IMG/VR virus record: IMGVR_UViG_3300045135_002242
Location: 1 to 64,000 of that record
Source: a virus
Length of the DNA: 64,000 bases
Direction: 5' to 3' (one strand)
The position numbers were made by a program, and so were the translations under genes. Each line of letters starts with the position of its first letter. Within the stretch, counting starts at the first letter, position 1. Below the pieces are notes generated by a model. That model did no database searches. It saw only the letters and a program-made list of their open reading frames with translations, and was not told the DNA's origin. Of this stretch, positions 10,410 through 40,471 are shown piece by piece.

Positions 10410-10640
10410 ATGACTGCTACAGATAAAATTGGTAATATTCTTACTAAAGGCACAAAAATTGTTTTTGCAAAAAAGAATGATGATCAAGTTCATTTTGGAA
10501 CAGTAGAAGAAGTTTTAGAACGTAATCGTATCAAAGTACGAAGAAATTCCACAGGAAGAGTATCCGTAAACGCCCGAGCAGGTAAAGAAGTCCTAAATAT
10601 CGATCATCTCGCAGAGGTATTTCCTGAATTTTTGGTCTAA
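10410..10640 (+). CDS. Small SH3/KOW-like protein with C-terminal PE-tag
   Basis: DKIGNILTKGTKIVF; ends FPEFLV. Confidence 0.75.
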   Translation: MTATDKIGNILTKGTKIVFAKKNDDQVHFGTVEEVLERNRIKVRRNSTGRVSVNARAGKEVLNIDHLAEVFPEFLV

Positions 10641-10673
10641 CTACGCCAAACAACTATAACTAAGGTATAACAT

Positions 10674-11993
10674 ATGAATATTTTTCAAGCCAAACAAGTT
10701 ATTGAGGCTGCAGATGTATGCGGTCATGTACCGCTTATTCGAGGCCTACATGGCATCGGTAAGTCCGAGTCCGCCGCACAGTATGCCAAAGAGCAAGACA
10801 TGCACTATGAGCCTCTTATTCTCTCTCTGATGGACACAGGTGATATGCTTGGTCTGCCAGAAATCGAAAAGGTAGGAGGAGTAACTTCTACTATTTGGGC
10901 AGCACCTAGCTGGTATACTAACATTGTAAATGCAGCATGGCCTGAAGCTATCAAACTACATCGTCTTCAATTTACTGACACAGACTTTCAAACGTATGTA
11001 CTAGATAACACTTACGAAAATCCAGATTATATTAGTAGGGAACATCTTAACAGTCTTTACTGTAAATACTATAAGCTGCCTAACGACCGTATCCAACTGC
11101 TTCGTCAACAAAACGTAGAATACCTTGATGGGCGCAGGTCTCTTCTTAACTTGGACGAGTTTAACCGGGCACCTGCTGATATCCTTAATGCGTCATTGCA
11201 ACTAATCCTAGATCACCGCCTCCACACCCATATCCTTCCTCTGGTACGAGGTCAAGAAACTTTGATTGTGGCCGCAGTAAACCCTGCAGATGGTGACTAT
11301 ACGGTTCAAGAGTTTGATCCTGCTTTGCAAGATCGCTTTGTTATTTGTGATGTTGACCCGGACTTTAAAGCCTGGCTTAGCTGGGCTAAATCTGCAAATG
11401 TAAACAAAATTGTAATTGATTTTCTCATCGATAATCAAAACCGTTTTCATACTACTCCTAAGGATGGTACTAAAGGGGCATCTCCTCGTTCTTGGACACG
11501 CCTAGCTAAATATATGGACCGCCTAAAGGACACTCCTCAAGATGTAATGACCCATTACGTAAAAGGTACTGTAGGCTCTAGTTTGGCAGCTCAGTTTATC
11601 TCTTTCTACAATAATTACAGTAACAATATCTCTACTAAAGATATTATTACTGCTGTAAAGAAAGAAGTCACTAAACTGAAAAAAGCAAAGAAACCTCTTA
11701 ACCCCGAAGAAATTGCACTCCCAATTACCGAAATGGTTGAAAACCTAGAAGCCGTACGGCGCTCTGACTTTGCTGAAACACTGATTAAACAGTTTATCAA
11801 CGAAGAATCAACAGAAAAAGCAATGCCTATGCTGGCTTTCTTGTACGCGCTTCCGCTAGAAAGCTTGAGCGCTGTATTGAAAACTCTTCAAAATAACAAT
11901 ATTCAGCATTATGCTACTCTTGCTAATCTGGATAAAGAAGCAAACAACAAAGGTTTGTTTGTGAAACTAGTGTCAAAAGTAAAGGAAATGTAG
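10674..11993 (+). CDS. MoxR-like AAA+ ATPase
   Basis: GLHGIGKS, LDEFNRA, AAVNP, DPALQDRF, SPRSW. Confidence 0.9.
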   Translation: MNIFQAKQVIEAADVCGHVPLIRGLHGIGKSESAAQYAKEQDMHYEPLILSLMDTGDMLGLPEIEKVGGVTSTIWAAPSWYTNIVNAAWPEAIKLHRLQFTDTDFQTYVLDNTYENPDYISREHLNSLYCKYYKLPNDRIQLLRQQNVEYLDGRRSLLNLDEFNRAPADILNASLQLILDHRLHTHILPLVRGQETLIVAAVNPADGDYTVQEFDPALQDRFVICDVDPDFKAWLSWAKSANVNKIVIDFLIDNQNRFHTTPKDGTKGASPRSWTRLAKYMDRLKDTPQDVMTHYVKGTVGSSLAAQFISFYNNYSNNISTKDIITAVKKEVTKLKKAKKPLNPEEIALPITEMVENLEAVRRSDFAETLIKQFINEESTEKAMPMLAFLYALPLESLSAVLKTLQNNNIQHYATLANLDKEANNKGLFVKLVSKVKEM

Positions 11994-12662
11994 ATGCAAG
12001 TTAAACTTATTGGTTATACTCAACCAGCTAATGATATTGGTCTAGAAGATGTACAGGAACTTATTTCCTTTTGTGCTCGGGTTTCTAACCCTTCCAATCA
12101 AATGAATATGGAAACTTCAGAAAAACTTCTAAAGTATCTTGCTAAACATCAGCATTGGTCCCCTTTTGAGATGGCTTCTGCAGTAATGGAAGTAGACACA
12201 ACTCGAGACATTGCTCGACAATTTTTGCGCCATCGTTCTTTTTATTTCCAAGAATTTAGTCAACGATACGCTAACCCAGAAGAATTTGGGGACCAATTTG
12301 TGTATCGAGAAGCTAGGCTTCAAGACCACAAAAATCGGCAAAACTCTATTGAACTAGGGGAAAACGATTCTGATATCAAATTTGAATGGTTTAATCAACA
12401 ACAAAAAGTAATTGATGCAGCCACAAAAGCTTATAACTGGGCCATTAAAAATGATATTGCTAAAGAACAGGCTCGAGTAGTACTACCTGAAGGTAACACT
12501 GTTTCGCGTCTTTATGTACATGGTACTATCCGTTCTTGGATTCACTATATTGAACTTCGTTCTAAAGAAGGCACCCAAAAAGAGCATATTGAACTAGCGA
12601 AAGCTTGTGCAGAGGCAATCACCAAAATTTTTCCTCTTGCAAAGAACTATGTAGCTAAGTAA
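11994..12662 (+). CDS. thyX: Flavin-dependent thymidylate synthase
   Basis: HWSPFE and RHRSFYFQEFSQRY ThyX motif. Confidence 0.95.
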   Translation: MQVKLIGYTQPANDIGLEDVQELISFCARVSNPSNQMNMETSEKLLKYLAKHQHWSPFEMASAVMEVDTTRDIARQFLRHRSFYFQEFSQRYANPEEFGDQFVYREARLQDHKNRQNSIELGENDSDIKFEWFNQQQKVIDAATKAYNWAIKNDIAKEQARVVLPEGNTVSRLYVHGTIRSWIHYIELRSKEGTQKEHIELAKACAEAITKIFPLAKNYVAK

Positions 12663-12666
12663 CATT

Positions 12667-12700
12667 AAGGAGGACTTACATTCGTAAGTCTTCCTTTCCT
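12667..12700 (+). terminator. Probable terminator hairpin
   Basis: AAGGAGGACTTAC-ATTC-GTAAGTCTTCCTT then pyrimidine tract. Confidence 0.6.
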
Positions 12701-12721
12701 TATCATGGTGTTACTAATAAT

Positions 12722-13432: not shown

Positions 13433-13443
13433 AAGTTATTAGT

Positions 13444-13479
13444 GTTAGCCATCCTGCAACTTACTGCAGGGTGGTTAAC
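13444..13479 (+). promoter_or_regulatory. Long hairpin covering the RBS of the next gene
   Basis: GTTAGCCATCCTGCA/TGCAGGGTGGTTAAC ends 2 nt before ATG 13482. Confidence 0.55.
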
Positions 13480-13481
13480 TT

Positions 13482-14832: not shown

Positions 14833-15041
14833 TGAAATCATATATCTATAGCAAGAGTGATTGGGCATATGAACTCATTGATGTGTTTCTTGGTCTATTT
14901 GACAAGGATGGTGAAGAACTAGTTGAAGAATTTCATTTGAAAGGTTTTGATGACGTGGAATGGCGAGAAGCAAAAGAATTTGCCAAAATGGTATCAGAAG
15001 CAACCAATGTCGAATACATTGGAGATAGGACAGATACATAA
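14829..15041 (+). CDS. Hypothetical protein
   Basis: Coupled ORF with GAGG SD. Confidence 0.65.
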   Translation: MMKSYIYSKSDWAYELIDVFLGLFDKDGEELVEEFHLKGFDDVEWREAKEFAKMVSEATNVEYIGDRTDT

Positions 15042-25327: not shown

Positions 25328-25588
25328 ATGATTGATGTTTTAGGCCACCCTATTATTAAAGGGGCAAAAGTACTTACTAGCCACTACAGTAGCCCCAATA
25401 TGAACTACGTTACAACAGTTAAAAAAGTTAATAAAAAAACGGTAGTAGTAAAACTTCCTGTGCTAAGGTGGAATAATTTTTCATGGGAATCTGACTGGCG
25501 TGATGTAAAAAGAACTCCTGATAAAGTTGTTGTAATTACCAATCAGCTGGCGTACAACAAAAAACAGTACCCAGAGTATATTCTATAA
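25328..25588 (+). CDS. Small SH3/KOW-like protein with PE-tag
   Basis: DVLGHPIIKGAKV; ends YPEYIL. Confidence 0.75.
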   Translation: MIDVLGHPIIKGAKVLTSHYSSPNMNYVTTVKKVNKKTVVVKLPVLRWNNFSWESDWRDVKRTPDKVVVITNQLAYNKKQYPEYIL

Positions 25589-25818
25589 TGCATGACGCTA
25601 TTAATCAACCTGTCCAAATAGGAGATGTTGTGGCCTATAAAACAACATACTCATCTAAAATAGTTTTGGGGTATATTACTAAAGTAACTCCTAAAGGAGC
25701 TACAATTAGTCTTTTTAGCCAGCCAGACCGTAAAATTAACCGAAGTTCTGACAACTTTATAAAAATTAATTATCAATGGAAAAAATTTAAACAAGAACAT
25801 CCGGAGGCTTTTATATGA
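25588..25818 (+). CDS. Small SH3/KOW-like protein with PE-tag
   Basis: DAINQPVQIGDVV; ends HPEAFI. Confidence 0.75.
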   Translation: MHDAINQPVQIGDVVAYKTTYSSKIVLGYITKVTPKGATISLFSQPDRKINRSSDNFIKINYQWKKFKQEHPEAFI

Positions 25819-26336
25819 GTATGCTAGTACAAACTAAAGAGCTACTTGCCCAACAAGGAGCTTTTAGCGGTGAGCAAAATCAACATCTTGCTGACGTAGT
25901 AAACGCCATTAGTTTTCCTACAATTAATCCAAGGATGAAAGCCGTAGTAGGGGTAGCCCAAATTACAGCTTTTGCTAGTCAATTCAGACGAAATATTGAA
26001 CTTTGGGACGAAGCTACTGAAGTACCAGTAAATGCTATTTCATTCGTAATTACAGGGTCAGGTGCAGGTAAAGACTCTTCTGTAAAAGCAGCCCGTAAGT
26101 GCTTTAAAAGCGGTTACGCCCTTATTGAACAAGCTTCTAACCAAAAAGCTATTCAGCTTGCCATAGAACAAGCAAAAGAAGAAAAGCAGACAAACCCTCA
26201 AGACGAAGCTATTTACCGTCCTTACCTTAAACCAGTGCCCCCTATTGATATTATGCCTACTACAGGCCCAGGGCTTATTCAGCATATTAATGATATTGGA
26301 GATATTGGCCTAGGGGCAGGTTTTATGTACTCTGGT
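25815..26336 (+). CDS. Helicase-primase, exon 1
   Basis: Walker A GSGAGKDS; ends YSG at the intron. Confidence 0.8.
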
Positions 26337-26646
26337 TAACGTAAGTAGTTGTAAATCTTTTGATAGCAGTTAAGATGAGAATAAACAAATGATATTTTCT
26401 GCGATCTTTAGAGTAGCATACTATGTTACATAGCCCCTCTACATGGTGACATGTAGTTTGCAGTTCTCTAATTGCTGGGAACCCTTTAGAGCCCCACAGA
26501 CTCCCCTAAGCAGTAATGTGTTAGGTATAGTAAAACTAGTGAGGATTAGGCAATCAGCAGCGAAGCTTCCTATTAGGAAGAACGTTCAACGACTATCGCG
26601 TAAGCGAGTACACCTAAGTAGGTGGAAACGGGAACTATGTTTGGTG

Positions 26647-26708: not shown

Positions 26709-27518
26709 GTGAAAGAAATCTGGAAACCTGTAAAAGGTAGAGAAGACTTTTACGAAGTATCAAATACTGGAAAAGTTAGATCTTTAGTAGGTAGATACAA
26801 AAGTAAAGAAATATTTGAGTTAAAGCAGTATGTAAATAAAAAAGGTTATTGTTCGTTAGACTTAGCTATGCCAGAACTGAAAAAATATTCAGTACATAGG
26901 TTAGTAGCAGAAACTTTCTGTGATAAACCTGAAGGGCATAATGTAGTAAACCATATAGACAATAACCCCAGTAATAATATTTATACAAACCTTGAGTGGA
27001 CTACGTATAGTGGAAACCTGAAACACGCACAAAATCAAGGACGTTTATTTAACGCCCAGTCTAAAGGCGGTAAAGTTACAGGTAAACGAGCATCAGAAGC
27101 CCTATTTACAGCTACTACAGAAATGGTAGGCAAAGAGTATGGCAGTCTTACTGTAATATCTGAAGGTTCAGTAGTAAAATACAAAAACGCTAATAGACCA
27201 CGACTAGTATGCAAATGCACTTGCGGTACAGAAAGTGAATATTGCAAAATACAGCTAGAAAAAAGCAAAGTCACTAAATGCAAAACTTGTGCATCAAAGC
27301 AACTTGGGTATGAAAGACGTAAAAAACGCATACAAGAGTTGGCCAATACTGCCGCAGGTAACTTAGTATTTACAGGTATTAGCACAAACTCAAATAAACT
27401 GGATATGAAAGACGTAAAAGTGCAATTATATAACATTACTACTAATGAATATGAATGGCACTCTTACAGAAAAGCAACCAGTTCCAGATTTCTTAATAAA
27501 CATAAAGATATAGTCTAG
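26709..27518 (+). CDS. NUMOD4-HNH homing endonuclease (intron-encoded)
   Basis: WKPV..YEVSNTGKVRS, VHRLVA, VNHIDNNPSNN; stop lies in the S element. Confidence 0.92.
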   Translation: MKEIWKPVKGREDFYEVSNTGKVRSLVGRYKSKEIFELKQYVNKKGYCSLDLAMPELKKYSVHRLVAETFCDKPEGHNVVNHIDNNPSNNIYTNLEWTTYSGNLKHAQNQGRLFNAQSKGGKVTGKRASEALFTATTEMVGKEYGSLTVISEGSVVKYKNANRPRLVCKCTCGTESEYCKIQLEKSKVTKCKTCASKQLGYERRKKRIQELANTAAGNLVFTGISTNSNKLDMKDVKVQLYNITTNEYEWHSYRKATSSRFLNKHKDIV

Positions 27519-27587: not shown

Positions 27588-29327
27588 GAATTTTCGGATG
27601 AACTGGCCTATAACCAAGATATGGTAGAGAATATCAAAACTCTGTCAGAAATTTATGATACCGGAGATAAAGAAGTTAAATACACAAAAACTGTAGAAAA
27701 CAGGTCAAAAGCTATTACCGGCCAACCTGTATCTGCTTTGTTTGTTGGATCTCCTGGGCATATCCTTTACGACGAAGGCACAAAGAAAAAGTTTTACATT
27801 GCTTTTATGTCCAAACTAGCTAGACGAAGCTGGTTTTGTTACGCTCCTGATAAAATAGAAGAAAAAGCATTTGATACTATCGAAGAGCTTTGGGACTATG
27901 AAGAAGCTATTGAGACAAAGTCTAAGCAAGCTCGCGTAGGTTTAGACCTAACTAGCCATGCTATTGCTGAATACAACTTAGAAAAACATGGACAAAACAT
28001 TACTGTTTCTAAAGAAGTAGAACGGCTATATAAAGTTTACAAACGATACAATAATGACTTAGCAGACCTTCTTCCCAACCAAGACTCCACTTATGCTCTT
28101 ATTAGAAGACATCTGCAATGGAAAGCACTAAAACTAGCGGGCGCTTTTACTATTATGAGCTGCCAAGATGAAATTACCTCTAAGGCTTTTATCGAAGCTA
28201 TTAGATTTTGTGAGATCTTAGATAAAGACATGGAAGTATTCGAAAGGGACCTGAATAAGTCCCCACACGAGCTTCTAGTAGATTTTTTTCGTACCAAAAC
28301 TTTGGTGGATGGTGCTTCAGAAATTAGTACTCATGACCTTAAAAAGCAAGGTTTTATGAATAATGTTACTAAAACTAAGCTCAAAGAAATGGTAGCTCTT
28401 TGTGCAGGTTACGATAGAAACTCTGTGTATTCAGTTGTTAATGATGGCTCTGCTATTCGTTATGAGCCTATTATTAAAACAGACTCTATTAATGTCACTT
28501 ACAAAGAGATTGACTGTACCGCACTAAATTCAGCTATTAAACAAAAAAACTACGAAAAAACCAGACAAGCTAAACAGGATATTGCAGCAACAGTAAACTA
28601 TGGCTTTGAAAATGCAACCACTAGTTTTGCCAAACTGCCTTTAATGCTTAAGCAAGACTACGCGTATTCACCATTTAAATTTAAAGACGGTATTAGGCGT
28701 AAAGAAAACTTAGAATCTGGTACAAAATGGGTAGTACTTGATATCGACGACTCTTTACTTTCTGCTGAAGAAGCTCATATGATGCTTGGAGATATAAACC
28801 ATCATATTGCTCTTACCAGCGACAACAGCAACCAATTTAAGTTTAGGGTGCTACTGGAGCTAGATTCTGAAGTCTACCTAGATTCTCTAACTTGGAAGCA
28901 TTTTTATTTAAAAATTGCAGACGACTTAGGCTTAAGAGCAGATCCTCTTCCTCAAGCCCAAATTTTTTACTCTTATGCAAATAGGACCATATATAGTAAT
29001 ACAGAAGCTGATCCGATCGAAACTCGAGATTACTTAATGTATGCAAAAGATAAGGCATCCGAAAAAGAAGTGCAAAACAAGGTTATGACTAATGCGCAAA
29101 AACGTGCGCAGCTGCAAGACCCTGTAACTACTTTTGAGTATGCTTTTGAAGCTAGGTATGGAGAAGGCTCTCGTAACATGTATCGTATGATGCGACATGC
29201 ACAAGACTTAGGAGCCTCCTTAGAAGAGGTATTACAACTTTTAGAAGACGTAAATGACTACTGGGATAACCCTATGCCACAAGATCGTCTTGACAAGCTT
29301 AAAGAGCAAGGAACTAGGCTCTTTTAA
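27588..29327 (+). CDS. Helicase-primase, exon 2 (C-terminal AEP primase-like + PriCT-like region)
   Basis: WVVLDIDD, HHIALTS, KFRVLL, GEGSRN; spliced product about 753 aa. Confidence 0.75.
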   Translation, partial: EFSDELAYNQDMVENIKTLSEIYDTGDKEVKYTKTVENRSKAITGQPVSALFVGSPGHILYDEGTKKKFYIAFMSKLARRSWFCYAPDKIEEKAFDTIEELWDYEEAIETKSKQARVGLDLTSHAIAEYNLEKHGQNITVSKEVERLYKVYKRYNNDLADLLPNQDSTYALIRRHLQWKALKLAGAFTIMSCQDEITSKAFIEAIRFCEILDKDMEVFERDLNKSPHELLVDFFRTKTLVDGASEISTHDLKKQGFMNNVTKTKLKEMVALCAGYDRNSVYSVVNDGSAIRYEPIIKTDSINVTYKEIDCTALNSAIKQKNYEKTRQAKQDIAATVNYGFENATTSFAKLPLMLKQDYAYSPFKFKDGIRRKENLESGTKWVVLDIDDSLLSAEEAHMMLGDINHHIALTSDNSNQFKFRVLLELDSEVYLDSLTWKHFYLKIADDLGLRADPLPQAQIFYSYANRTIYSNTEADPIETRDYLMYAKDKASEKEVQNKVMTNAQKRAQLQDPVTTFEYAFEARYGEGSRNMYRMMRHAQDLGASLEEVLQLLEDVNDYWDNPMPQDRLDKLKEQGTRLF

Positions 29328-29363: not shown

Positions 29364-29711
29364 ATGAACCAACAACACTACAAAAGTAACGTAAAAGCGA
29401 CTTCTGGCGATGTAACTACTACAGGCTTTAGTATTGACGTCAATGAGTCTATGTTCCAACTTCTTACCTCAAACGTTTATAACGATACTGTTCTCGCTGT
29501 TATGCGAGAATGGTCTACAAATGCCTGTGATGCCTGCTTGCAGGCAGGTAAAGAAGTAATTTATGATGTGCATATCCCTACTCCAGAAGAACCGACATTT
29601 TTTGTAAGAGACTATGGAACAGGTTTATCCCCTGATGACATTGTGGGGCTGTTTAGCCAACTAGGGGCTTCTACTAAAAGAAACTCCAGCCAGTTGAATG
29701 GCACCCTGGGT
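29364..29711 (+). CDS. rIIA: rIIA-like GHKL ATPase, exon 1
   Basis: VMREWSTNACDA, VRDYGTGLS, STKRNS..NGTLG. Confidence 0.85.
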
Positions 29712-30027
29712 TAACGTATATAACTATTAGTTTTTACTGTATTAGGCATGATGAAAATAAACAAATGATAATGCTTAAAAGGTAAAAAGAGTAGATATGT
29801 TACATAGCCCCTGTATATAGTAATATATACAAGCAAATCTCTCTAATTGACGGGAAACTCCTTATAGCTTACAGCACTCCCTGCCACAGTAATGATGGTA
29901 GTATAGTAAAAGAATGTAAGATTGGACAATCCGCAGCCAAGGGTCCTATAGGATCAAGGTTCAACGACTAGCCGAAAGGCGTAGAGCTTAAGTAAGTTCG
30001 AAATGGGAGATACCCTTAGATAAGTCC

Positions 30028-30056
30028 TTTACAAGTAGTACATTTAATGGTATACT
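30028..30056 (+). promoter_or_regulatory. Sigma70-type promoter for the intron 2 endonuclease
   Basis: TTTACA-17 nt-TATACT with extended TG. Confidence 0.7.
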
Positions 30057-30082
30057 TGAGTTTTTATTGGGGGACTAATCAA

Positions 30083-30721
30083 ATGCAAGAAATTTACAAA
30101 GATATAAAAGGTTTTGAAGGATATTATAAAATATCTAATCTAGGGAATGTAAAATCTCTTGGAGCATATAATAACAGGAAAGAAAAACTTCTTGTTCAAG
30201 AAAATGCAAAAAGTAAAAATACATCATATAAACGAGTAAAATTGCACAAAGATGGCAAAGTTACACGTTATCTAGTACATAGATTAGTGGCAATACATTT
30301 TTTAGATAATCCAGAACAAAAACCACAAGTTAATCATATTGATAATAATCCGTTAAATAATATTGTAACTAACCTAGAATGGTGTACTGGTTCAGAAAAC
30401 ATGCAACATTCTATAAAACAAGGCAGACAAAAGTATGTAACAGAATTAGCGATAGCTGCTATGGCTAAAGCTAATAAAGATAAAGTAAAACCTAAGTATA
30501 ATGCTTTAATTGGCAAAAATTTAAATGGTCGTATTTTACTTTCTTACATGTCTGAAAAAAAGCCTAATGGAAAACCACGTTACAAAGGCATATTTAGTTG
30601 TGCTAACTGCAATAAAGAATTTACCGCAGAAATGGATAGTTCTATAAAAAATATCAATAGAGAACAACCTTGTTATTGTAGATCTTGTACCAAGAAAAAT
30701 AAGGGTAAAGATATAGTCTAG
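30083..30721 (+). CDS. NUMOD4-HNH homing endonuclease (intron-encoded)
   Basis: YKDIKGFEGYYKISNLGNVKS, VHRLVA, VNHIDNNPLNN; ends KDIV* in the S element. Confidence 0.92.
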   Translation: MQEIYKDIKGFEGYYKISNLGNVKSLGAYNNRKEKLLVQENAKSKNTSYKRVKLHKDGKVTRYLVHRLVAIHFLDNPEQKPQVNHIDNNPLNNIVTNLEWCTGSENMQHSIKQGRQKYVTELAIAAMAKANKDKVKPKYNALIGKNLNGRILLSYMSEKKPNGKPRYKGIFSCANCNKEFTAEMDSSIKNINREQPCYCRSCTKKNKGKDIV

Positions 30722-30790
30722 TCTCATGCGAAAGCATGAGTTGCGTGTAATGACGCAGGTACAAATTAACGACTTGTATTGAATATAACG

Positions 30791-32527
30791 ATTGGCCGTA
30801 TGGCTGGCTTAGCCGTGGCTAATGCTTTTACCGTAGAGTCCTTTTTTAAGGGCTCTAAACATAACTACGCTATCAGCATCCAAAATGGTATTCCTGTAAC
30901 CATGCATATGGGAACTACTCCTACAGATGAACCTGATGGGCTAAAACTATCCGTAGCCGTAAACTATGGTGATATCTCTAGGTATCTACAGCGAGCCCCT
31001 AGTCTTTATAAGTTTTTTGACTACAAACCTAACCTAAACTTAGACATAGACATCTCCCTAGACTCTTCAAATACCCTTTCTGATAGCTGGTTTGTTATGC
31101 CTAGTGACATTAAAAGGTACGCTCAACGGAACTATGTGCTAATGTCCCAAGTCATCTATGAGATTCCTTTTAGTTCTGAGGTTGATAATAAAGACTTTGT
31201 AAATATTGTGATTAAGGCCCCTCCCGGAGCCGTAACTTTTAACCCAGGAAGAGAGTCTTTGTCTTTAGATAAAAAGACCATAGGCTACCTTAACAGCGCT
31301 TTTAACAAAATTGCAGAAGAGTGTGTAGAAGAAATTAATAAAACGCTGCCATTAATGGATTCGGACTATGAGCTACTAAAGTTTTATAATAGCACTATTA
31401 AAAGCTTGCCTCGCAAGCTTTCCAAAAATATTAATGTAGAAGTATTTATGTCTAAAGAAAGTAAATTACTATTTGCTTCTTCATATTATTATACTGGTAC
31501 GTCTTTTGAATACGTGAACCAAACTTCAGCTTTCGACCAGCATACTAATAATATGTTAAACATAAACTACAAAACATCCTACTATAAATCTTCCAAAAAA
31601 CTAGTGGATGCAGGTCCTCAGCACTCTCATAGCTTCTATTTTTCTCCTCATGTAATTGTAGATGTAAAAACTAACTATAAATCTCAATTGAATAGGTTAC
31701 ACGAACAACAAAGGTTATTTACGTGGCAAAAGACCAAAAATGCAGATTTAGATGAAGCCGTAGCTACTGCAAAAAGTTTCTTAGAAGCTTTAGGCATTCC
31801 TTACAAGCTTGCTTCAGACTTATTAAAAGATATCCCTGTTATTGACAAGAAAACTGCTCCTAGAGAAGGATTGCATTCATACCCTTTTACTGGGGTTACA
31901 GCAGAAAGAGTTGAAAAATTTTCTGAACAACAGAGTAAAGCTAAAACATATCTTTACTTGAAGTTGAATAAAACCACCCCGGTACTGAACGATAAAGTTA
32001 ATTCCTTTTCTAGCTATCAGCAAGTATATAAAATTTTGCAAAATATTGTTTATATGCCTCCTGTGCGAGGTGTGCCTAAGAAATATCAAGAATATGTAGA
32101 AAACCTAGATAACTGGGTAGATTACGAAACATTTATTAAAGACAAGGTAAAATCTCATACATTTAAAGCTTCAGTAGATGTTCGCTTTCCCTTTATACCT
32201 AGGGAGGTACTAAATCACAATAATATCCTTCTTTACCCGCAAAAAGTTCAAAACTTTTACAGGAGTTACGAAAAATTTTCTGAGTATACAAAAGATAAAA
32301 AGTATATTGCTGATCCGGATGTAGAGCTATTTCTTAAAGCACTAGGGGGAACTTTTGAGTCTTTACCTATGGATGTTCAAAAAATTACAGACGCCTTTAA
32401 GAAAGATTTTCCACTAACAAGTAAACTCCTTTTCAATTTAAGGTATAAATATAATGATGATTTAAACTTTTGTATAGATCTGGCTAAACTGGAAGACTAT
32501 CATGCAACACATTCAACTGGACAATAA
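30791..32527 (+). CDS. rIIA: rIIA-like protein, exon 2
   Basis: AFTVES, TDEPDGL, PGRESLS; spliced product about 694 aa. Confidence 0.8.
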   Translation: MGRMAGLAVANAFTVESFFKGSKHNYAISIQNGIPVTMHMGTTPTDEPDGLKLSVAVNYGDISRYLQRAPSLYKFFDYKPNLNLDIDISLDSSNTLSDSWFVMPSDIKRYAQRNYVLMSQVIYEIPFSSEVDNKDFVNIVIKAPPGAVTFNPGRESLSLDKKTIGYLNSAFNKIAEECVEEINKTLPLMDSDYELLKFYNSTIKSLPRKLSKNINVEVFMSKESKLLFASSYYYTGTSFEYVNQTSAFDQHTNNMLNINYKTSYYKSSKKLVDAGPQHSHSFYFSPHVIVDVKTNYKSQLNRLHEQQRLFTWQKTKNADLDEAVATAKSFLEALGIPYKLASDLLKDIPVIDKKTAPREGLHSYPFTGVTAERVEKFSEQQSKAKTYLYLKLNKTTPVLNDKVNSFSSYQQVYKILQNIVYMPPVRGVPKKYQEYVENLDNWVDYETFIKDKVKSHTFKASVDVRFPFIPREVLNHNNILLYPQKVQNFYRSYEKFSEYTKDKKYIADPDVELFLKALGGTFESLPMDVQKITDAFKKDFPLTSKLLFNLRYKYNDDLNFCIDLAKLEDYHATHSTGQ

Positions 32528-32876
32528 TAGTTTTATTTTAAATATTAATGGGACTTTAACTACAATAACCCGTAAATCTTTTAACTTTAATAAAATTAGT
32601 AAGCTACTAAAAGAAGAAGCTCCAGAAGAAAATATTGTCCCCCTACTAAAAACTCCAGATCTTTCAAATGGTGTTTATGAAATCTATATTTTTCCGTCCA
32701 CTGATGCCATTTTTTATAAACATTTCACTAAGGGCTCAACTACTCCCACAACTCTAACAGTTTTAGGAAACACAAAACAACATAGTTCTATCCCTAAAGA
32801 CTGGGAAAACTACTTTGTGGGTGTATATGCTTCTGAAGCAGATATTAAAGCAGATTGGCCTGAATACTTTTTATAA
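32502..32876 (+). CDS. rIIB N-terminal-like short protein with PE-tag
   Basis: Follows rIIA; NSFILNINGTLTTITRKSFNFNKI resembles the rIIB start; ends WPEYFL. Confidence 0.6.
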   Translation: MQHIQLDNNSFILNINGTLTTITRKSFNFNKISKLLKEEAPEENIVPLLKTPDLSNGVYEIYIFPSTDAIFYKHFTKGSTTPTTLTVLGNTKQHSSIPKDWENYFVGVYASEADIKADWPEYFL

Positions 32877-33694: not shown

Positions 33695-33696
33695 TA

Positions 33697-34098
33697 TTGT
33701 CTATTACTAAAGTAGCATTTGAAGACTTTGCCAAAAACCCTAAAAGCTATTACAAATCTAAAGTAGCTTTTCCTGAATATCCTATATTTGTTAACAGTAA
33801 CGGAATGTTTACAAACTATTATATAAAAGTAGGCAAGCAAGGAAAACTTAACCTGTGCTATGGGCAAAATAAATCTTTTTACCTGTCTGGAGAGCTAGTC
33901 TTTTCTGCTGACCGTGGATTACTAAACAGACAAAAGGTTATTTTACCTACATTATCGTACTTAGGGAGACTACTCCCAAAAACTATAAAAATATACCAGG
34001 ATAACTTAGAAACCTACAAAAAAACTTATGAAAACGCAAAAGCCAAACTGGCTACCATAGATAAGTTAAAAAATGACTACCCTGAGCTGATACTTTAA
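33697..34098 (+). CDS. Hypothetical protein with PE-tag
   Basis: GGAGG SD, TTG start; ends YPELIL. Confidence 0.75.
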   Translation: MSITKVAFEDFAKNPKSYYKSKVAFPEYPIFVNSNGMFTNYYIKVGKQGKLNLCYGQNKSFYLSGELVFSADRGLLNRQKVILPTLSYLGRLLPKTIKIYQDNLETYKKTYENAKAKLATIDKLKNDYPELIL

Positions 34099-34108: not shown

Positions 34109-34771
34109 ATGTCAGTAAAACTACTAATTTCTGCCGAAGCAAATTCCGGCAAAACTACATTAACCCGCAACCTAAAAAACTCATTGGTTGTAAGCCATGA
34201 CGGTAAACGATACCCATTTAAGGTTCCTCATGTTATGGTGCCCTCTTTTGACAATGTAGAAGAGCTTATTGCAACAGTAGTAGATAAAATTGAAACTTAT
34301 AAAAATAAGTTTAAGACCTACCCTGAAACAGTTGTGTTTGATTCAGTATCTAAAATTTTTGACACTATCCATTCTAACTGCAACGAAAAGTTCAAAGGCT
34401 TTACTATTTATAGCGAACTAGATAAGGAAATTACCAAACTAACCGGTTTTATCGAAAACTCTCTTATCGCTAGTGGAATGAATGTCGTACTTATTTCTCA
34501 TGCTCTGTATGACTCAGAAACTGCTAAGTATAGCCTTGTAGGAAAAGGTTCATTTAGCAAAAGAGGTGGGTTCCTTGCCGAGGTAGACGAATCAATCTTT
34601 ATTGAGGTAAAGAGCAACAAACGTATTTTGCATTTCCGTTCTACTAAACTACCGGCAAGGACTCTTCAAGAAGACCTAGCAGACAGTATGCCTATTGAGG
34701 ATTTTAACCTCCAAGAGCATATTGAAGTTCTAGCAGCAACCACAAATGAAGTAGACGAATACGCACTTTAA
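34109..34771 (+). CDS. Sak4/AAA_24-like ATPase
   Basis: SAEANSGKTT, VVFDSVS, VVLISH; next to exonuclease and SSB. Confidence 0.8.
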   Translation: MSVKLLISAEANSGKTTLTRNLKNSLVVSHDGKRYPFKVPHVMVPSFDNVEELIATVVDKIETYKNKFKTYPETVVFDSVSKIFDTIHSNCNEKFKGFTIYSELDKEITKLTGFIENSLIASGMNVVLISHALYDSETAKYSLVGKGSFSKRGGFLAEVDESIFIEVKSNKRILHFRSTKLPARTLQEDLADSMPIEDFNLQEHIEVLAATTNEVDEYAL

Positions 34772-34799
34772 TCTATAAATTATAATATAAGGAAATCTT

Positions 34800-35474
34800 A
34801 TGAAACTAACCGTATCTAAAAAACCAGAAAACATTAAAGACACCGGCGGTGGTGGTTATATCAACAAGTCTGGTATTTATGACGTAGTACTAAACTATGT
34901 TCAAGTAGCAGAAACCAAAAATGGTGCCTACCAGCTTAACTTTAACGTAACTAATGGGGGTATGAGCCAAACGCTGTATGGTCCTATCCTTATCAACAAA
35001 GACGGCAAGGCCAACGAAATTACTCAAAACCTTCTTAACCGTCTTTGTATTATTGCCGGTATGGACGACGGGCAAGAAATTGAAACCGACACTGTAGAAA
35101 TGCCTGTAGGTAAAGACCAAAAGCTTATGGAAATGGAAATTATCCCTGAACTTACTGAGCTTGCTGTTAAAATGCGTGTACAGATGGAGTACAGCCTTTG
35201 GCTTAACGAAATCCAAGAACGGAAAAGCATTAAGTCCTTTTATCGTGAGGATGGGGCTACGGCAGCAGAAGCAGAATCAGGAGAGAATATCGGCAAACGT
35301 CTTGCTCTCGATGAAGAAAAGTATGCTTCTAATGTAACATACCGTGACGGGCTTACGGAAGAAGACGTTACAGCTTGGATCCAGCAACGGGCTAACGGCT
35401 CTAGTGGTAACACAAAGCCTGCTGCAGCAAACCCCACTAAAACTAATACCAAACGCCCTCTTTTTGGCAAATAA
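34800..35474 (+). CDS. Probable single-stranded DNA-binding protein
   Basis: GYINKSGIYDV beta-rich start, flexible tail ending RPLFGK, gene context. Confidence 0.65.
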   Translation: MKLTVSKKPENIKDTGGGGYINKSGIYDVVLNYVQVAETKNGAYQLNFNVTNGGMSQTLYGPILINKDGKANEITQNLLNRLCIIAGMDDGQEIETDTVEMPVGKDQKLMEMEIIPELTELAVKMRVQMEYSLWLNEIQERKSIKSFYREDGATAAEAESGENIGKRLALDEEKYASNVTYRDGLTEEDVTAWIQQRANGSSGNTKPAAANPTKTNTKRPLFGK

Positions 35475-35485
35475 GGTAGGGTATC

Positions 35486-36640
35486 ATGGCTGTAAAAGTA
35501 ACTGATGAAGCGCTAGCACAGCTGTGTGTTGATCATAATTATGACATTCCTTTGATTGTAGAGTCCCTTAAAGTAGCTTATCCAAATTATAGCGTAAGAC
35601 CTAATAGAGTCGTAGAACGTATTAACAAGATGCGGAAAAAAGGAGTTCTTCCTTTAGACTCAGGTAACTATGTTAGTAGTGGAGAAGTGCTTAAAGGGTC
35701 CTCTACTCTTTATGATGAACAAGGGAACGTCAAACTCCAATGGGTAAAAACTGACGTAGAAAAAAAGAATCAGCTTAATGTTTTAAAAGAACTAGTTGAC
35801 TCTTATGTAGAAGAACTGCCACAGTTTGAGAAGAAGCCGTATACTCTTACATATGCTTCAAAAGACTTAATGGCAGTCTACCCTTTGGGGGATCCTCATA
35901 TCGGCATGAAAGCATACAAAGACGAAGCAGGCAGTAATTGGGACCTAAAGGCCTCCCAAGAAGTGTTTTGCGGGGTTTTTGACAGACTAGTAAATACTGC
36001 ACCAGCATGTGAACAAGCAGTAATTGTAAATCTAGGGGACTATTTCCATAGAGATAACGTCCAAGGCGTCACAGAAAGACATAGACATGCTCTAGACACT
36101 GATGGTAACTACATGATGATGGTAGATACCGGCCTTAAGATTATGATTCAAATGATTAACTCTGCACTACAACGACACAATAGCGTAAAAGTTATTAACA
36201 TGCTAGGTAACCATGATGATACAGGGGCTATGTTTTTGCAAGCTGCTCTGAAGCACATGTATGAAAAAGAGCCAAGACTGCAAGTAGAGTGCACTAGCTC
36301 TGTTTACCAGTATTTTCAACATGGATCTTCTTTTTTTGGGGTACACCACGGACACACCTGTAAACCCGACAAACTCCCGCTAGTTATGGCTACTGATAAG
36401 CCTAAGGAGTGGGGAACTTCAAAGCATCGTTATTGGATTACTGGACATATTCACCATGATACTCGTAAAGAGTACTCAGGGTGTACAGTAGAGTCTTTTA
36501 GGACCTTAGCAGGTAAAGATGCTTATGCCTACTCCGGTGGCTACAGGGCAGGACAAGATAGTAAAGCACTAGTTATCCATAAAGATTTTGGAGAGGTGGA
36601 GCGGCATACTATTAACATTTCTCAAGTATTAAAACAATAA
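35486..36640 (+). CDS. Calcineurin-like metallophosphoesterase
   Basis: GDPHIG, LGDYFH, GNHD, HHGH, GHIHH. Confidence 0.88.
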   Translation: MAVKVTDEALAQLCVDHNYDIPLIVESLKVAYPNYSVRPNRVVERINKMRKKGVLPLDSGNYVSSGEVLKGSSTLYDEQGNVKLQWVKTDVEKKNQLNVLKELVDSYVEELPQFEKKPYTLTYASKDLMAVYPLGDPHIGMKAYKDEAGSNWDLKASQEVFCGVFDRLVNTAPACEQAVIVNLGDYFHRDNVQGVTERHRHALDTDGNYMMMVDTGLKIMIQMINSALQRHNSVKVINMLGNHDDTGAMFLQAALKHMYEKEPRLQVECTSSVYQYFQHGSSFFGVHHGHTCKPDKLPLVMATDKPKEWGTSKHRYWITGHIHHDTRKEYSGCTVESFRTLAGKDAYAYSGGYRAGQDSKALVIHKDFGEVERHTINISQVLKQ

Positions 36641-36677
36641 GCACTTTTATAAGTGCTTATTACTTACAGAGGGTCTT

Positions 36678-37325
36678 ATGAATTACTTTAAAAAAAGAAA
36701 TATTAATACTGTTATAGATACTCTTCTTGATCACTTAGGGTTTTCAGATTGGTTTATTTCAGGGAGTTTTGCAAACAATCGTATGCGTAACCCCTCTGAC
36801 ATTGATATTTATTTTTATACAAAAAAAGGTTACCAAAACGCCACTAGAAATTTGCAGAATAGTACTATTAGCGTATATATGGTAACCCCCAACGCTAGCA
36901 GCTTTATACTTAAAGGTTTAAAGCTACCGGTACAACTTGTTGCTAAGCATTTTGGTACTCCACAAGAAATTTTTAATACTATGGATATCAATGTATGCAA
37001 ACAGGCTATTTTATCTGATAAAACTCTAGTACAAGATCCTTCAAGCCACTTTCCTGTAACTTTAAACAAGCCTTCCTACGGCTCTTTTTCTAGGTATTTT
37101 TACTACTTAGATAATTACTACTCCCCCGTAGAGCATTATAAAAAGTCAAAAATTCTTATTTCTAAATATATTACAGATAGTACCCTACTTTCCCACTATT
37201 ACAAGGGAGAAGTTAACCACAAACCTACTAACCAATGTCTGTACGAAGCTGCTTTAAAACGGCCTGAGTTATGCTCTTTAATCAAACAACAAACTTTATT
37301 ACATGCTCCAGAGCTATTACTATGA
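36678..37325 (+). CDS. Nucleotidyltransferase (polyA-polymerase/CCA head-like) with PE-tag
   Basis: FISGSF...SDIDIYF, DINVCK; ends APELLL. Confidence 0.7.
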   Translation: MNYFKKRNINTVIDTLLDHLGFSDWFISGSFANNRMRNPSDIDIYFYTKKGYQNATRNLQNSTISVYMVTPNASSFILKGLKLPVQLVAKHFGTPQEIFNTMDINVCKQAILSDKTLVQDPSSHFPVTLNKPSYGSFSRYFYYLDNYYSPVEHYKKSKILISKYITDSTLLSHYYKGEVNHKPTNQCLYEAALKRPELCSLIKQQTLLHAPELLL

Positions 37326-37381
37326 ATTTAACTGAAGAACAACAATGTTGTTATTGTTCTTCTTTTAAATTTGTAGTATAA
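37322..37381 (+). pseudogene. Relic 5' end of the helicase gene (MNLTEEQQ...)
   Basis: ATGA-coupled to the upstream stop; first codons match helicase start NLTKEQQ at 38153. Confidence 0.65.
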
Positions 37382-37404
37382 TTACAATAAATTACAGGAA
37401 CTAC

Positions 37405-38172
37405 ATGAAAAAATTAACACAATCAGAATTTATTGTAAATGCAACAAGTAAACACGGAAGCCTGTACGATTATACAAAAACTAGATATATCACTAGCCGT
37501 GACTTTATAACCATTACTTGTAATACTTGTTTTAAAGATTTTAATATTAAAGCTAATAACCATTTAAACGGCCAAGGATGTAAATACTGTGCCGCAGCTA
37601 GAACAGCAAGCAAACTTGCGCGAACTTTCGAAGATTTTAAAAAAGAAGCCAGTAAAGTACACAATAGTAAGTATAGCTATGTTGATACTACATTAAAAAA
37701 TAATAAGCAAAAAGTAATAGTAATATGCCCAAAACATGGAAAATTCCAACAAACAGTAAATCATCATTTACGTGGAAGAGGTTGTCCATCTTGTGCTATA
37801 GATATAACAAAAGAAAAAAATCGTAATAAACAAAATGTATGGAGCTACTCTGGATGGGAAGCCCAAGGAGTATCTTCGAAATACTTTAATGGTTTTACCC
37901 TTTATATCATAGAATGCTGGAAAGATAACGAGCGTTTTATAAAAATTGGTAAAACATTCATTAATATATCCAAACGATTTCAAGGTCAATTACCATATGA
38001 CTGGAAAGTAATCAAAACTATTACAGGCTCTGCCAGATATATAAGTGAGCTAGAATATGCGTTACATTCCTTAAACATTAACTATAAATATTCACCTAAA
38101 ATAGCGTTTAAAGGCGATAGTGAATGTTTTTTACTAACTGAAAATTTACACTATGAGCCTAAACCTAACTAA
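37405..38172 (+). CDS. Free-standing homing endonuclease (zinc-binding repeats + GIY-YIG-like C-terminus)
   Basis: Two FxxxAxxxHxxxYxY...C..HL.G.GC..C repeats; FIKIGKT...SECF. Confidence 0.8.
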   Translation: MKKLTQSEFIVNATSKHGSLYDYTKTRYITSRDFITITCNTCFKDFNIKANNHLNGQGCKYCAAARTASKLARTFEDFKKEASKVHNSKYSYVDTTLKNNKQKVIVICPKHGKFQQTVNHHLRGRGCPSCAIDITKEKNRNKQNVWSYSGWEAQGVSSKYFNGFTLYIIECWKDNERFIKIGKTFINISKRFQGQLPYDWKVIKTITGSARYISELEYALHSLNINYKYSPKIAFKGDSECFLLTENLHYEPKPN

Positions 38173-39583
38173 AGAACAACAAAACGTAGTTGATTTCATT
38201 ACCAGCAACGACGAAAATAAGCTAATTTTAATTGACTCTGTAGCAGGCAGCGGTAAAACTACCCTACTTAGAGCTATTGCTAACACTATTGATAACAAAT
38301 CTGGTTTGTACTTAGCATACAATAAAGCTATTGCTACGGAGTCAGCTAAAAAATTCCCAAAAAACATTGAGTGTAGAACTACCCACTCTTTAGCTTATAG
38401 GGCTACTGTAAACTCCCTAGGGCTAAATGTAGGGTTTTTTGGTCCCAAACAAATTACAGACAAGATGTCTTATACTAATAAAACAGCTTTAGTAGAGGAT
38501 ATTAAAGAATACTGCCTATCTAGTTACCTTACTTATAAAAGCTTTGCAGATAATACAGGCAGGGCTAACACAAAACTAGTGAATAAGTATCTGGGTAAAA
38601 TGTTGAGTGGTGATATTGATTGTACTCATGACTTTTACCTCAAACAATATCATATCGGCCTAGCAACGGGGACAATTTCAATTCCTGATTACCATCTGGC
38701 TATGCTTGATGAGGCGGGAGATTTAAACGAAGTCACACTAGAAATTTTTAAGCTTATTTCTGCAAAGTTAAAAGTTGTTGTGGGGGACCCCCACCAAAAT
38801 ATTTATACCTTTAACCATACAATTAACTGTTTTGAAAAATTAAAAGGGCAGGGTACTACTTTTAAGCTTTCTAAGTCTTTCAGGGTTCCGCAAGTTATTG
38901 CAAAATCTGTTGAAAAGTTTTGTAAAGCTTATCTAAACCCTGAAATGGAATTTGAAGGTATTGACAATTGTCCTACTGTTATCACTACTAGAGGTTATAT
39001 TTCTCGCACTAACAGTGGCCTCATCAATAAACTAGTGGAGCTTAATAGGGATGGAACTCCTTATGGATTAGTACGTAAAGCGCAAGAAATATTTAAAGTC
39101 CCTCTTATGGTGGCTGGTTTAAAGTATGAAGGTAAAATTTATGACCCAGCTTATAGGCATATCCAAGAAGACGTAGATGGCTGGTTTGAAAATACTAACA
39201 GCATCAAATCTCAACATCCTACTTTATTTGGGTACCTTAAAAGCAAATACCCTGATGACCTATCTTTAATTCAAGCAATTAACCTTATCTCAAAACATTC
39301 TAAATCTGGTATTTTTAATGCATATGCAGAAGCAAAGAAGCATGAAAACACTACTCAAGATTTTATGTTGTTGACAGCACACTCATCAAAAGGCTTAGAG
39401 TTTGATGAGGTAATTTTAGCTCCAGACATGAATATGTCAGTAGGAGAACTAATCGGTGAGCTACAACAAAACCCCGATAAGAAGTTAAACACGTTTGAAA
39501 AAGAATCTTTAAACCTATACTATGTAGCCTGTACTAGGGCCCTAGTTCGTTTAAGAAATGCAACTCATTTGGTAGGTTTGTAA
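38153..39583 (+). CDS. UvrD-like SF1 helicase
   Basis: AGSGKTT, DEAGD, GDPHQ, HSSKGLEFD, YVACTRA. Confidence 0.92.
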   Translation: MSLNLTKEQQNVVDFITSNDENKLILIDSVAGSGKTTLLRAIANTIDNKSGLYLAYNKAIATESAKKFPKNIECRTTHSLAYRATVNSLGLNVGFFGPKQITDKMSYTNKTALVEDIKEYCLSSYLTYKSFADNTGRANTKLVNKYLGKMLSGDIDCTHDFYLKQYHIGLATGTISIPDYHLAMLDEAGDLNEVTLEIFKLISAKLKVVVGDPHQNIYTFNHTINCFEKLKGQGTTFKLSKSFRVPQVIAKSVEKFCKAYLNPEMEFEGIDNCPTVITTRGYISRTNSGLINKLVELNRDGTPYGLVRKAQEIFKVPLMVAGLKYEGKIYDPAYRHIQEDVDGWFENTNSIKSQHPTLFGYLKSKYPDDLSLIQAINLISKHSKSGIFNAYAEAKKHENTTQDFMLLTAHSSKGLEFDEVILAPDMNMSVGELIGELQQNPDKKLNTFEKESLNLYYVACTRALVRLRNATHLVGL

Positions 39584-40245
39584 TGAAAATACCCCGCAGT
39601 ATAGACGTCAAATATGAATATACTAACGATCCGTGTAAAGCTAGTTGTTGGTTACAAGATATTCCTGATACTTTTGCTGCAGACTTAGAAACAGCTATTA
39701 GGTATTCCCAAGAGGAGGTAAAAGAAGCTAAGCTTAAAGCTGCTGATACTTCTTTACCTAAAAAAGAGCAAATCTATAACCAATCTATTGCTAATGCTAC
39801 CGCCTTAGGGCATCCATATCACTGTACTATTACCCATTGCAGTATTGCTAGTGAGGAGGACTTTGGCAGAGTTTTTATTATTGATAGTCAAGATATTGCT
39901 GATGTAGTATTAGATTTTTTAACTACTACAGACAAAACCCAAGTATGGCATAGATACGCCTATGATGGCAGGTTTATTAAATACTATGGTGGACAGCAGC
40001 CAAAAAATGTACAAGATACTCAAATATTTGCTAAAACATTAGTTAATCACGTAGAAGTTTTTAAAGCTTCTACCGGTCTTAAAGACTTAGCAGGAGCTTG
40101 GTACGGAGACTGGGGCATATCCTCTGAGCACTTTACTTTAGAGCAGCAGTATGAGCCTAAAGTAATTAAGTATGCGGCTATCGATGCTTGCGCAACTTTT
40201 AAGCTATGGAGATACCTTAATGAATTCATCGGAAAAACCTCTTGA
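39583..40245 (+). CDS. 3'-5' exonuclease domain of DNA polymerase A (separate gene)
   Basis: ADLET, HxxxYD, YAAIDA. Confidence 0.85.
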   Translation: MKIPRSIDVKYEYTNDPCKASCWLQDIPDTFAADLETAIRYSQEEVKEAKLKAADTSLPKKEQIYNQSIANATALGHPYHCTITHCSIASEEDFGRVFIIDSQDIADVVLDFLTTTDKTQVWHRYAYDGRFIKYYGGQQPKNVQDTQIFAKTLVNHVEVFKASTGLKDLAGAWYGDWGISSEHFTLEQQYEPKVIKYAAIDACATFKLWRYLNEFIGKTS

Positions 40246-40471
40246 GATTTTTGATCAAACTCACTACGATAACACTTTTTATTTTTGTGAAAAAGATCAC
40301 CCTTTTATCGCATTTACTACGGTTTTTTGCCCTTGTTGTCTACTTCATCAATCCAATGCTACTGCTACAGCTGAGCTAGAAGAGGCAGAACAGATGTACG
40401 AAGATACTTTAGAACGGTTAGAAGAGTTAACTATCAAAGCAAAAAACACAGCACCTGAGATATTAGTATAA
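40220..40471 (+). CDS. Hypothetical zinc-finger/coiled-coil protein with PE-tag
   Basis: GGAG SD; CxxxH...CPCC; ends APEILV. Confidence 0.7.
   Translation: MNSSEKPLEIFDQTHYDNTFYFCEKDHPFIAFTTVFCPCCLLHQSNATATAELEEAEQMYEDTLERLEELTIKAKNTAPEILV

Follow-up and report, generated by a model that had tools for sequence, protein, structure and literature searches.

The window analysed here comprises bases 1-64000 of G000, a 95,789-bp IMG/VR virus record (IMGVR_UViG_3300045135_002242) rated 92% complete. The phage is an AD45-like (N4-like) Alteromonas-type podovirus, and a set of its proteins ends in the same short peptide, Pro-Glu followed by three hydrophobic residues and the stop codon (the P-E tail). 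This tail is real, occurs far above chance on unrelated folds and is kept by selection on the protein. Across unrelated phage backbones it co-occurs with one clade of a gene pair encoding a zincin-like metallopeptidase fused to a vWA domain (zincin-vWA) and a MoxR-type AAA+ ATPase. The tail is best read as an undescribed C-terminal docking tag, with the MoxR/zincin-vWA pair as the leading candidate reader.

A strict tail was defined as Pro-Glu, three hydrophobic residues and the stop, with Pro at -5 and Glu at -4. The original prediction named seven open reading frames (ORFs) of the window that end in this way, and translation bore this out, with Pro and Glu in the required register and hydrophobic residues right at the stop in all seven. 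The whole genome holds more than these seven, as two further P-E tails were found outside the window, at 89975-90193 and 88347-88568, both on the minus strand. The crude gene set used for whole-genome counts (137 proteins of G000) thus contained nine tailed proteins, eight of them strict. Because the strict pentapeptide was found only three times at 28,773 internal positions of G000 proteins, 0.014 C-terminal tails would be expected by chance, compared to the 8 observed (Poisson P about 4e-20). Shuffling of the last 30 residues over 20,000 rounds gave a mean of 0.02 tails and a maximum of 2. The original prediction had likewise put the chance expectation well below one.

In its general form the tail begins with an aromatic or small residue and continues P-E-x-x-[L/I/V] up to the stop; an amphipathic helix usually precedes it. 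The last residues at the extreme C-terminus were non-polar in all nine tails of G000 and in the 78 tails of the Vibrio phage pv27; the exception was L073, described below. The carriers were mostly small, non-structural early and middle proteins, and no recognised structural protein was tailed. They had been described as unrelated, and a BLAST comparison among the tagged proteins of G000 indeed returned no matches between them, but the tagged genes at 25328 and 25588 both belong to phrog_2251. The carriers therefore represent about 7-8 independent families rather than nine.

The family of the tagged gene at 25328 illustrates how closely the tail is kept. An AlphaFold2 model of this family (pLDDT, the per-residue model confidence, of 93) was assigned an SH3-like fold by Foldseek, with the barrel leading into a helix and the helix into the tail. 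Three of the carriers had been described as SH3-like barrels; the model confirmed the barrel, but for this family only. In an alignment of eleven members (A2), the only invariant columns were G12 and V15, two core residues, and P82 and E83, the Pro and Glu of the tail. A profile search of 1.84 billion representatives with this family returned 236 clusters, and 140 of the best 149 ended in P-E-x-x-hydrophobic. A word-indexed protein search with the 86-residue tagged protein returned only the protein itself.

The selection acts on the residues and not on the bases. The nine tails of G000 use all four Pro codons and both Glu codons, and across the 78 tails of pv27 the information content was high at codon positions 1 and 2, fell at the wobble position and was absent past the stop. 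Orthologues at ~25% identity kept the tail, with six-residue ends that were nearly or fully identical in AD45-P1, and ten related IMG/VR contigs kept their tails likewise. A ribosome-binding site, promoter or mobile-element scar that reads as Pro-Glu by accident might be suspected from the tail at 25588-25818, which overlaps a GGAGG ahead of the next start (CCG GAG G before the overlapping ATG). No other tail in the window coincides with a strong Shine-Dalgarno (SD) sequence; of the seven genes downstream, five are either at a distance or served by a separate SD. The Glu codon at -4 is also GAG in seven of the nine tails compared to 31% GAG genome-wide, a bias that may reflect secondary selection for a weak ribosome-binding site of the next gene. 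Given the codon variety, the free wobble position and the lack of conservation downstream, an origin of the tail as a nucleotide artefact is effectively refuted, as the original prediction of protein-level selection had anticipated.

Occurrence of the tail and of the zincin-vWA/MoxR pair across phages

To follow the distribution of the zincin-vWA protein, tblastn was run against 50,697 phage records. Identities above 40% were restricted to five AD45 records (46%) and six Vibrio myophages of 191-196 kb (42-43%), namely pv27, phiKT1024, phiTY18, Va1, SRILMA and TDDLMA. All remaining matches, other N4-like phages included, were at 28% identity or below. The tail is abundant in pv27 (191 kb, cultured), where 78 of 343 genes (23%) end in P-E-x-x-[I/V/L] with the consensus hydrophobic(-10)-[K/R]-x-x-[Y/H]-P-E-[L/E/Y]-F-I, and where tagged genes lie on both sides of the vWA gene and of the MoxR gene. 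By tblastn the present phage and pv27 have eight genes in common, of which the vWA (342 bits) and MoxR (221 bits) genes are by far the strongest.

Further tail-bearing genomes differ widely in the number of carriers. AD45-P1 (104 kb, cultured) has 3 tagged genes out of 149, and the complete AD45-like genome G017 (103.5 kb) has 51 out of 173 (29%). Between 9 and 14% of genes are tagged in G018 (83 kb, AD45-like; 16/115), in G007 (a 97-kb piece of a larger phage; 17/180) and in G016 (224 kb; 35/385). When the genes of the present phage were searched against G017, G018, G007, G016 and pv27 by tblastn (E ≤ 1e-5), only two had homologues in all five genomes, zincin-vWA (220-408 bits) and MoxR (190-332 bits). 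A Pfam scan of ten large tagged proteins from these same five genomes was almost uninformative.

The association was also seen in environmental sequences. A search for vWA loci with the single sequence returned nothing, and with an alignment (A1) it returned 36 IMG/VR loci. P-E tails were present within 10 kb in 18 of the 28 loci whose vWA was at least 31% identical, some with 5-14 tails per locus, and in none of the 8 loci at 28% identity or below. In the opposite direction, 31 stretches were retrieved with a DNA pattern that encodes one frequent form of the tail. All six of the tail-bearing contigs that were at least 37% complete encode the vWA protein, including two that had not been reached via the vWA query, and tail-bearing contigs without the vWA gene were only fragments of 25% completeness or less. 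Controls from the same host genera were tail-free: PT11-V19 (Alteromonas) has no such vWA, and SBP1 (Vibrio, N4-like) has only a distant one (26%). KVP40 had no tails in the first 50 kb examined and has no vWA-zincin. Since the tail in unrelated marine phages was found only alongside the pair, MoxR/vWA is the first concrete candidate for a reader.

PT11-V19 (L048/L050) has endings of another kind. Five of its small proteins, at 43790-44724 and 63630-64228, end in [D/E]-D-[G/E/D]-W-I, and the phage encodes a NirQ-like (MoxR-class) ATPase with no zincin-vWA match.

The candidate reader and its rivals

In the zincin-vWA protein, residues H98, H102 and H107 of the HExxHxxxGH motif were invariant in 23 relatives, as were D301, S303, S305, T359 and D383, which make up a complete metal ion-dependent adhesion site (MIDAS; DxSxS...T...D). 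The C-terminal domain superposes on integrin I-domains, CMG2 and the MIDAS domain of MDN1, and no sequence-related solved structure was found for the protein. The AD45-P1 orthologue of its partner is annotated as COG0714 MoxR-like. In the present phage a tagged gene of 231 bp is all that separates the two genes. AD45-P1 and G002 have them side by side, in G001 and G003 they are at most 1.5 kb apart, and in pv27 the distance is 45 kb. Tagged genes flank or adjoin the pair here (10410-10640) and in pv27, L073, L075 and G007. A co-folding run that paired zincin-vWA (alignment A3, plus Zn and Mg) with the tagged SH3-like family (A2) scored 0.00, which counts neither for nor against docking.

In the vWA-zincin of L063 and L064 (L063:7930-9153), the motif reads HNMLH, with Asn in place of the catalytic Glu of HExxH, and within 10 kb there are 14 P-E tails. 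The module may here exist as a pseudo-protease variant.

The form of the tail varied with the vWA clade. In a tree of 27 vWA proteins, N4-like backbones were nested among non-N4-like ones, and the tail ended in Leu in the subclade of AD45 and the present phage and in Ile elsewhere. Long vWA branches carried altered tails: P-H-[L/W]-F-L on at least 12 genes in L075 (a 146-kb IMG/VR contig), P-E-x-x-F with a final Phe in L078, and P-E-[L/Y]-F-[I/L] followed by 1-6 extra residues in L073. Of 70 vWA columns that are conserved in the canonical rows, only four were altered in all three of these lineages, including G384, which is beside D383 of the MIDAS. Because the branches are long and the lineages few, a link between the G384 change and the tail dialects is suggestive only. 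In L072 and L077, two genes just after the vWA gene carry an acidic tail of the ...D-E-L-Q-N-L-D-F type. An A-E-H-[L/F]-I tail was observed beside the diverged vWA-zincin of L065.

The explanation that we consider plausible, if tentative, is that the tail docks client proteins onto the phage MoxR/zincin-vWA machine. The P-E tail would be a short linear docking motif that marks small non-structural early and middle proteins as clients. In this model the MIDAS face of the vWA domain would hold the tail in extended form, and the metal would probably be bound by either the invariant Glu or the terminal carboxylate. The MoxR ring would then remodel, release or hand over the client, with or without cleavage by the fused zincin. 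Clients might be removed on schedule or activated; alternatively, the small tagged proteins could act as adaptors that bring in host targets. We infer this mechanism from integrin I-domains, CMG2, Rea1/MDN1 and further MoxR-vWA pairs, which we take as analogues. In integrin I-domains, CMG2 and the MDN1 MIDAS domain, an acidic side chain of the ligand is held on the MIDAS metal. Docking by vWA followed by MoxR action is proposed because the phage fold matches these ligand-binders and because vWA partners of MoxR are described to capture extended peptides, after which the ATPase acts in remodelling (PMC7159879).

Since the tail is missing from all recognised structural proteins, the handling of early proteins is a more likely role than virion assembly. 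The MoxR protein of the Escherichia phage MaxBurger (Bas54; L146/L147) is dispensable in the laboratory and needed against host defence (PMC13716836), which makes a role of the module beyond virion assembly plausible. Bas54 showed no crisp tag, and bas54_0140, the published anti-defence partner of its MoxR gene, was without a recurrent tail. Small genes at ~97994-104188 of Bas54 (bas54_0146 to 0166) often end in a loose acidic-hydrophobic sequence, [V/I]-[V/I]-E-E-like.

Several points weigh against the pair as reader, or against particular steps of its proposed action. The evidence for the pair is association throughout, and with labels shared among related phages through common ancestry, only about four backbones provide independent contrasts. 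The P-H lineage (L075) keeps an intact MIDAS, so that a simple Glu-to-Mg contact misfits. A free carboxylate would not always be needed, because the motif of L073 lies a few residues before the end, and zincin cleavage would not be universally required, because the Asn-bearing zincin of L063 and L064 has its 14 tails nearby. AD45-P1 has the pair yet only 3 tails, and L072 and L077 have a related vWA and a different tail. A small, fast-evolving reader would escape the five-genome intersection, as tblastn at this threshold is blind to small divergent proteins. In addition, Iyer et al. proposed virion assembly as the function of the pair in jumbo phages (PMC7824862).

Among the alternatives, a host reader is possible, if rather unlikely. 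A protease or unfoldase of the marine gammaproteobacterial host (ClpXP, ClpAP, FtsH or Lon) or another host hub would then recognise the tail as a degron or host-docking motif, and the link to MoxR/vWA would be indirect. Known bacterial C-terminal degrons have hydrophobic residues at the extreme C-terminus, which the end of the tail resembles. The hosts of phages with the tail also belong to at least two genera, Alteromonas and Vibrio, and binding of the tail by the phage pair is itself a prediction. However, PT11-V19, SBP1 and KVP40 share these host genera yet are tail-free (KVP40 over its first 50 kb), and the invariant Pro-Glu and the dialects (P-H, final Phe, Leu versus Ile) follow the phage vWA clade and no known host. 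The tail does not match the known consensus sequences of ssrA-type degrons, SspB XB, clamp-binding motifs (QL[SD]LF) or the tip of the single-stranded DNA-binding protein (SSB).

A different phage protein overlooked by the similarity searches, perhaps a fast-evolving small adaptor or an unannotated conserved gene, is improbable as the reader; MoxR/vWA would in that case only be co-inherited. The limited reach of tblastn leaves room for such a protein, as do the many genes of this phage without a family, and in pv27 and G007 tagged proteins of unknown function adjoin MoxR or vWA and could be third components. On the other side, the five-genome intersection yielded the pair alone, and a Pfam scan of 37 window proteins revealed no PDZ, TPR or similar peptide-binding domain. 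The same scan revealed no VMAP, iSTAND or FtsH component.

ClpP, which the original prediction had offered next to the MoxR-AAA/vWA pair as a reader encoded in the window, can be set aside as the shared reader. No homologue of this ClpP is present in pv27, with its 78 tails, or in G016, with its 35, whereas KVP40 has a ClpP that is 42% identical over exon 1 and lacks tails in the region examined. Of the readers proposed at the outset, only the MoxR-AAA/vWA pair was singled out by comparative genomics, and of the two phage-encoded candidates compared for co-occurrence it is the pair and not ClpP that accompanies the tail. Analogies with HbYX, PEP-CTERM and PDZ ligands were rejected for a mismatch of sequence or compartment, and no such reader domain was present among the Pfam-scanned window proteins. 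A clamp-binding tail of the suggested T4 type did not match either. In the 78 pv27 tails, Pro at -5 and Glu at -4 are present in 100% and are followed by Phe at -2 and Ile at -1, with no Gln and no L-x-L spacing, in contrast to Q-L-[S/D]-L-F or Q-L-x-L-x-L. The analogy with the SSB tip likewise does not fit the sequence.

Also improbable is a tail with no dedicated reader, acting within its own protein as a generic stabilising end (a helix cap or a shield from C-terminal proteolysis) that recombination has passed around the early genes. The tail usually comes after a helix, and in the SH3-like family the model gives it a pLDDT of about 83; small early genes of large phages often shuffle. Such an end would not be expected to be register-exact at the stop on unrelated folds, to be confined to phages with one vWA clade or to reach up to 29% of a proteome, and no DNA-level repeat able to drive recombination was present.

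Tagged genes and genome context

The tagged genes of the window and the two genes of the pair are listed in Table 1.

Table 1. Tagged genes of the window and the genes of the candidate reader (aa, amino acids).
Feature	Coordinates	Strand	Remarks
Zincin-like metallopeptidase fused to vWA domain, 429 aa	9120..10409	+	Pfam DUF2201_N + DUF2201; motif HEMLH...GH
Tagged gene, 76 aa, ends FPEFLV	10410..10640	+	Exactly between zincin-vWA and MoxR genes
MoxR-type AAA+ ATPase, 439 aa	10674..11993	+	Pfam AAA_5 (E 3.6e-6, above cut-off); phrog_1297 ATPase (1e-66)
Tagged gene, 86 aa, ends YPEYIL	25328..25588	+	phrog_2251; SH3-like barrel, C-terminal helix, tail
Tagged gene, 76 aa, ends HPEAFI	25588..25818	+	Distant paralogue of the 25328 gene; phrog_2251
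Tagged gene, 124 aa, ends WPEYFL	32502..32876	+	After rIIA; phrog_31418
Tagged gene, 133 aa (TTG start as listed), ends YPELIL	33697..34098	+	Between PD-(D/E)XK nuclease and Sak4-like ATPase
Tagged gene, 215 aa, ends APELLL	36678..37325	+	Weak Pol-beta-type nucleotidyltransferase signature
Tagged gene, 83 aa, ends APEILV	40220..40471	+	Between separate 3'-5' exonuclease and DNA polymerase genes

The first tagged gene has no orthologue in AD45-P1, where its two flanking genes abut. The 25588-25818 gene has a pv27 homologue (35% identity) that is likewise tagged. Five tandem SH3-like paralogues, each with a P-E tail, were observed at 34298-35517 of G003, a 48.6-kb IMG/VR contig. The label 'rIIB-like' given earlier to 32502-32876 was found to rest on position only, as the protein has no Pfam hit and phrog_31418 is of unknown function. 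Its orthologues in AD45-P1 (25% identity), L005-L014, G017 and G018 all end in aromatic-P-E-Y-x-[LI], and tblastn of the 124-residue protein against phages returned no match despite the AD45-P1 orthologue. For 33697-34098, Pfam and phrog family searches gave no match.

The 36678-37325 protein had been called a nucleotidyltransferase; the signature is there, but the match falls below the Pfam cut-off. The six-residue end of its AD45-P1 orthologue, gp073 (24% identity), is identical. Orthologues of the 40220-40471 protein in L005, L007, L008, L009 and L014 end in [AS]-P-E-[IL]-L-[ILV], and since they measure 81-86 residues the start at 40220 was preferred to that at 40172. The DNA polymerase I-type 3'-5' exonuclease at 39583-40245 (Pfam DNA_pol_A_exo1) is encoded separately from the polymerase (40480-42291); in AD45-P1 nothing separates this pair of genes.

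The replication and structural genes group the phage with the N4-like Alteromonas podoviruses vB_AmaP_AD45-P1 to P4. Its DNA polymerase is 66% identical to that of AD45, and its virion RNA polymerase is split into 2431 and 1390 residues. A megablast of 18 kb of the phage against the phage collection returned no match, and its relatives were visible at the protein level alone. Compared to AD45-P1, three genes are split by an inserted ORF: primase (25815-26339 and 27621-29327, with a NUMOD4/HNH_3 ORF at 26709-27518), rIIA (29364-29714 and 30779-32527, with a NUMOD4/HNH_3 ORF at 30047-30721) and ClpP (46470-46862 and 47679-47903, with an HNH_3 ORF at 47032-47529). These inserts are probably introns or free-standing homing endonucleases.

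Two further features of the record were observed. Its ends, 1-2034 and 94003-95766 of G000, repeat each other by blastn; with an identity of just 90-93% they are not an exact terminal repeat, and could reflect either two strain variants joined by assembly wrap-around or a duplication that has since diverged. At 2600-8400 of the window the G+C content is 46-51%, compared to 35-38% elsewhere. The ORFs of this segment have no AD45-P1 homologues and hardly any family matches, a Macro-domain protein being encoded at 7910-8380, and the segment may be a recently acquired island.

Relation to known systems and significance

The closest module in print is that of the 'group 2.2' jumbo phages, for which Iyer et al. 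(2021, Viruses 13:63) described a MoxR ATPase with a metallopeptidase-vWA co-chaperone and named no clients or recognition signal (PMC7824862). Both modules combine a MoxR ATPase with a vWA protein that has an N-terminal zincin. Unlike the jumbo-phage module, the one described here is encoded by a 96-kb N4-like podovirus and accompanies a C-terminal tail on non-structural proteins.

The vWA-MoxR ternary systems with FxSxx-COOH peptide modules (Kaur et al. 2020; PMC7159879) share with the phage system small, fast-diverging proteins that have a conserved C-terminal peptide, and a zincin is part of both. In contrast to those systems, the phage zincin is fused to the vWA domain rather than stand-alone, the phage motif differs from the four described types, and the core of the Kaur systems is vWA-MoxR-VMAP/FtsH. 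As in MIDAS domains that capture peptides, the phage vWA has an intact MIDAS and a matching fold, and the candidate ligand is an invariant acidic residue flanked by hydrophobic ones. The integrin I-domain, CMG2-protective antigen, Rea1/MDN1-UBL and Kaur systems serve cellular conflict or assembly with one or a few clients, whereas here the ligand is predicted and is present on 7-30% of the proteome. Unlike the ligands of the integrin, CMG2 and Rea1 type, the tail of one phage lineage has His in place of Glu.

Other C-terminal signals are similar in outline. Those recognised by bacterial proteases (the ssrA tag, and non-polar pentapeptides read by ClpXP, ClpAP, FtsH and Tsp) are also short, portable and hydrophobic and are found on unrelated proteins. 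Unlike ssrA-type degrons, the phage tail is encoded in the gene and not added by transfer-messenger RNA, has an invariant Pro-Glu at -5/-4 and is lineage-specific, co-varying with a phage gene pair. Docking tails include the clamp-binding ends of T4 gp43, gp33 and gp55, the acidic aromatic-tipped ends of T7 gp2.5 and gp4, and the SSB tip D-D-D-I-P-F. In these cases too, different proteins carry a C-terminal peptide that is read by one hub, and several carriers of the present phage lie in the replication module. The P-E tail differs from them in consensus, in having carriers also beside terminase, ParB-like and vWA genes, and in the far greater number of carriers in relatives.

The original prediction knew of no phage system described with such a tag. 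In agreement with this, no paper describing the tail was found, searches of full texts for C-terminal motifs common to early phage proteins returned nothing, and the motif is absent from the published genome descriptions of pv27 and phiTY18.

A broader proposal, which we consider unlikely, is that the tail provides proteome-wide addressing in many marine phages. MoxR and zincin-vWA would read the tail on 7-30% of proteins, and the tagged small proteins would be interchangeable adaptors or timed clients that, for example, deliver host or defence proteins or are cleared on schedule. Tail and reader would co-evolve into dialects (P-E...I, P-E...L, P-E...F and P-H...L).

Most small early genes of large phages are without known function, and a tag on up to a third of them would, if the docking proposal is true, place these under common handling. 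A first client set and recognition signal would likewise be assigned to the widespread phage MoxR/zincin-vWA module, whose role has so far only been conjectured in print. The genes would also become accessible to experiment, through a single peptide, a single candidate reader and two systems in culture, Alteromonas macleodii with AD45 and Vibrio with pv27-like phages. If the reader is confirmed, the tail would predict members of a phage-encoded regulon from sequence and would provide a portable tag for phage engineering.

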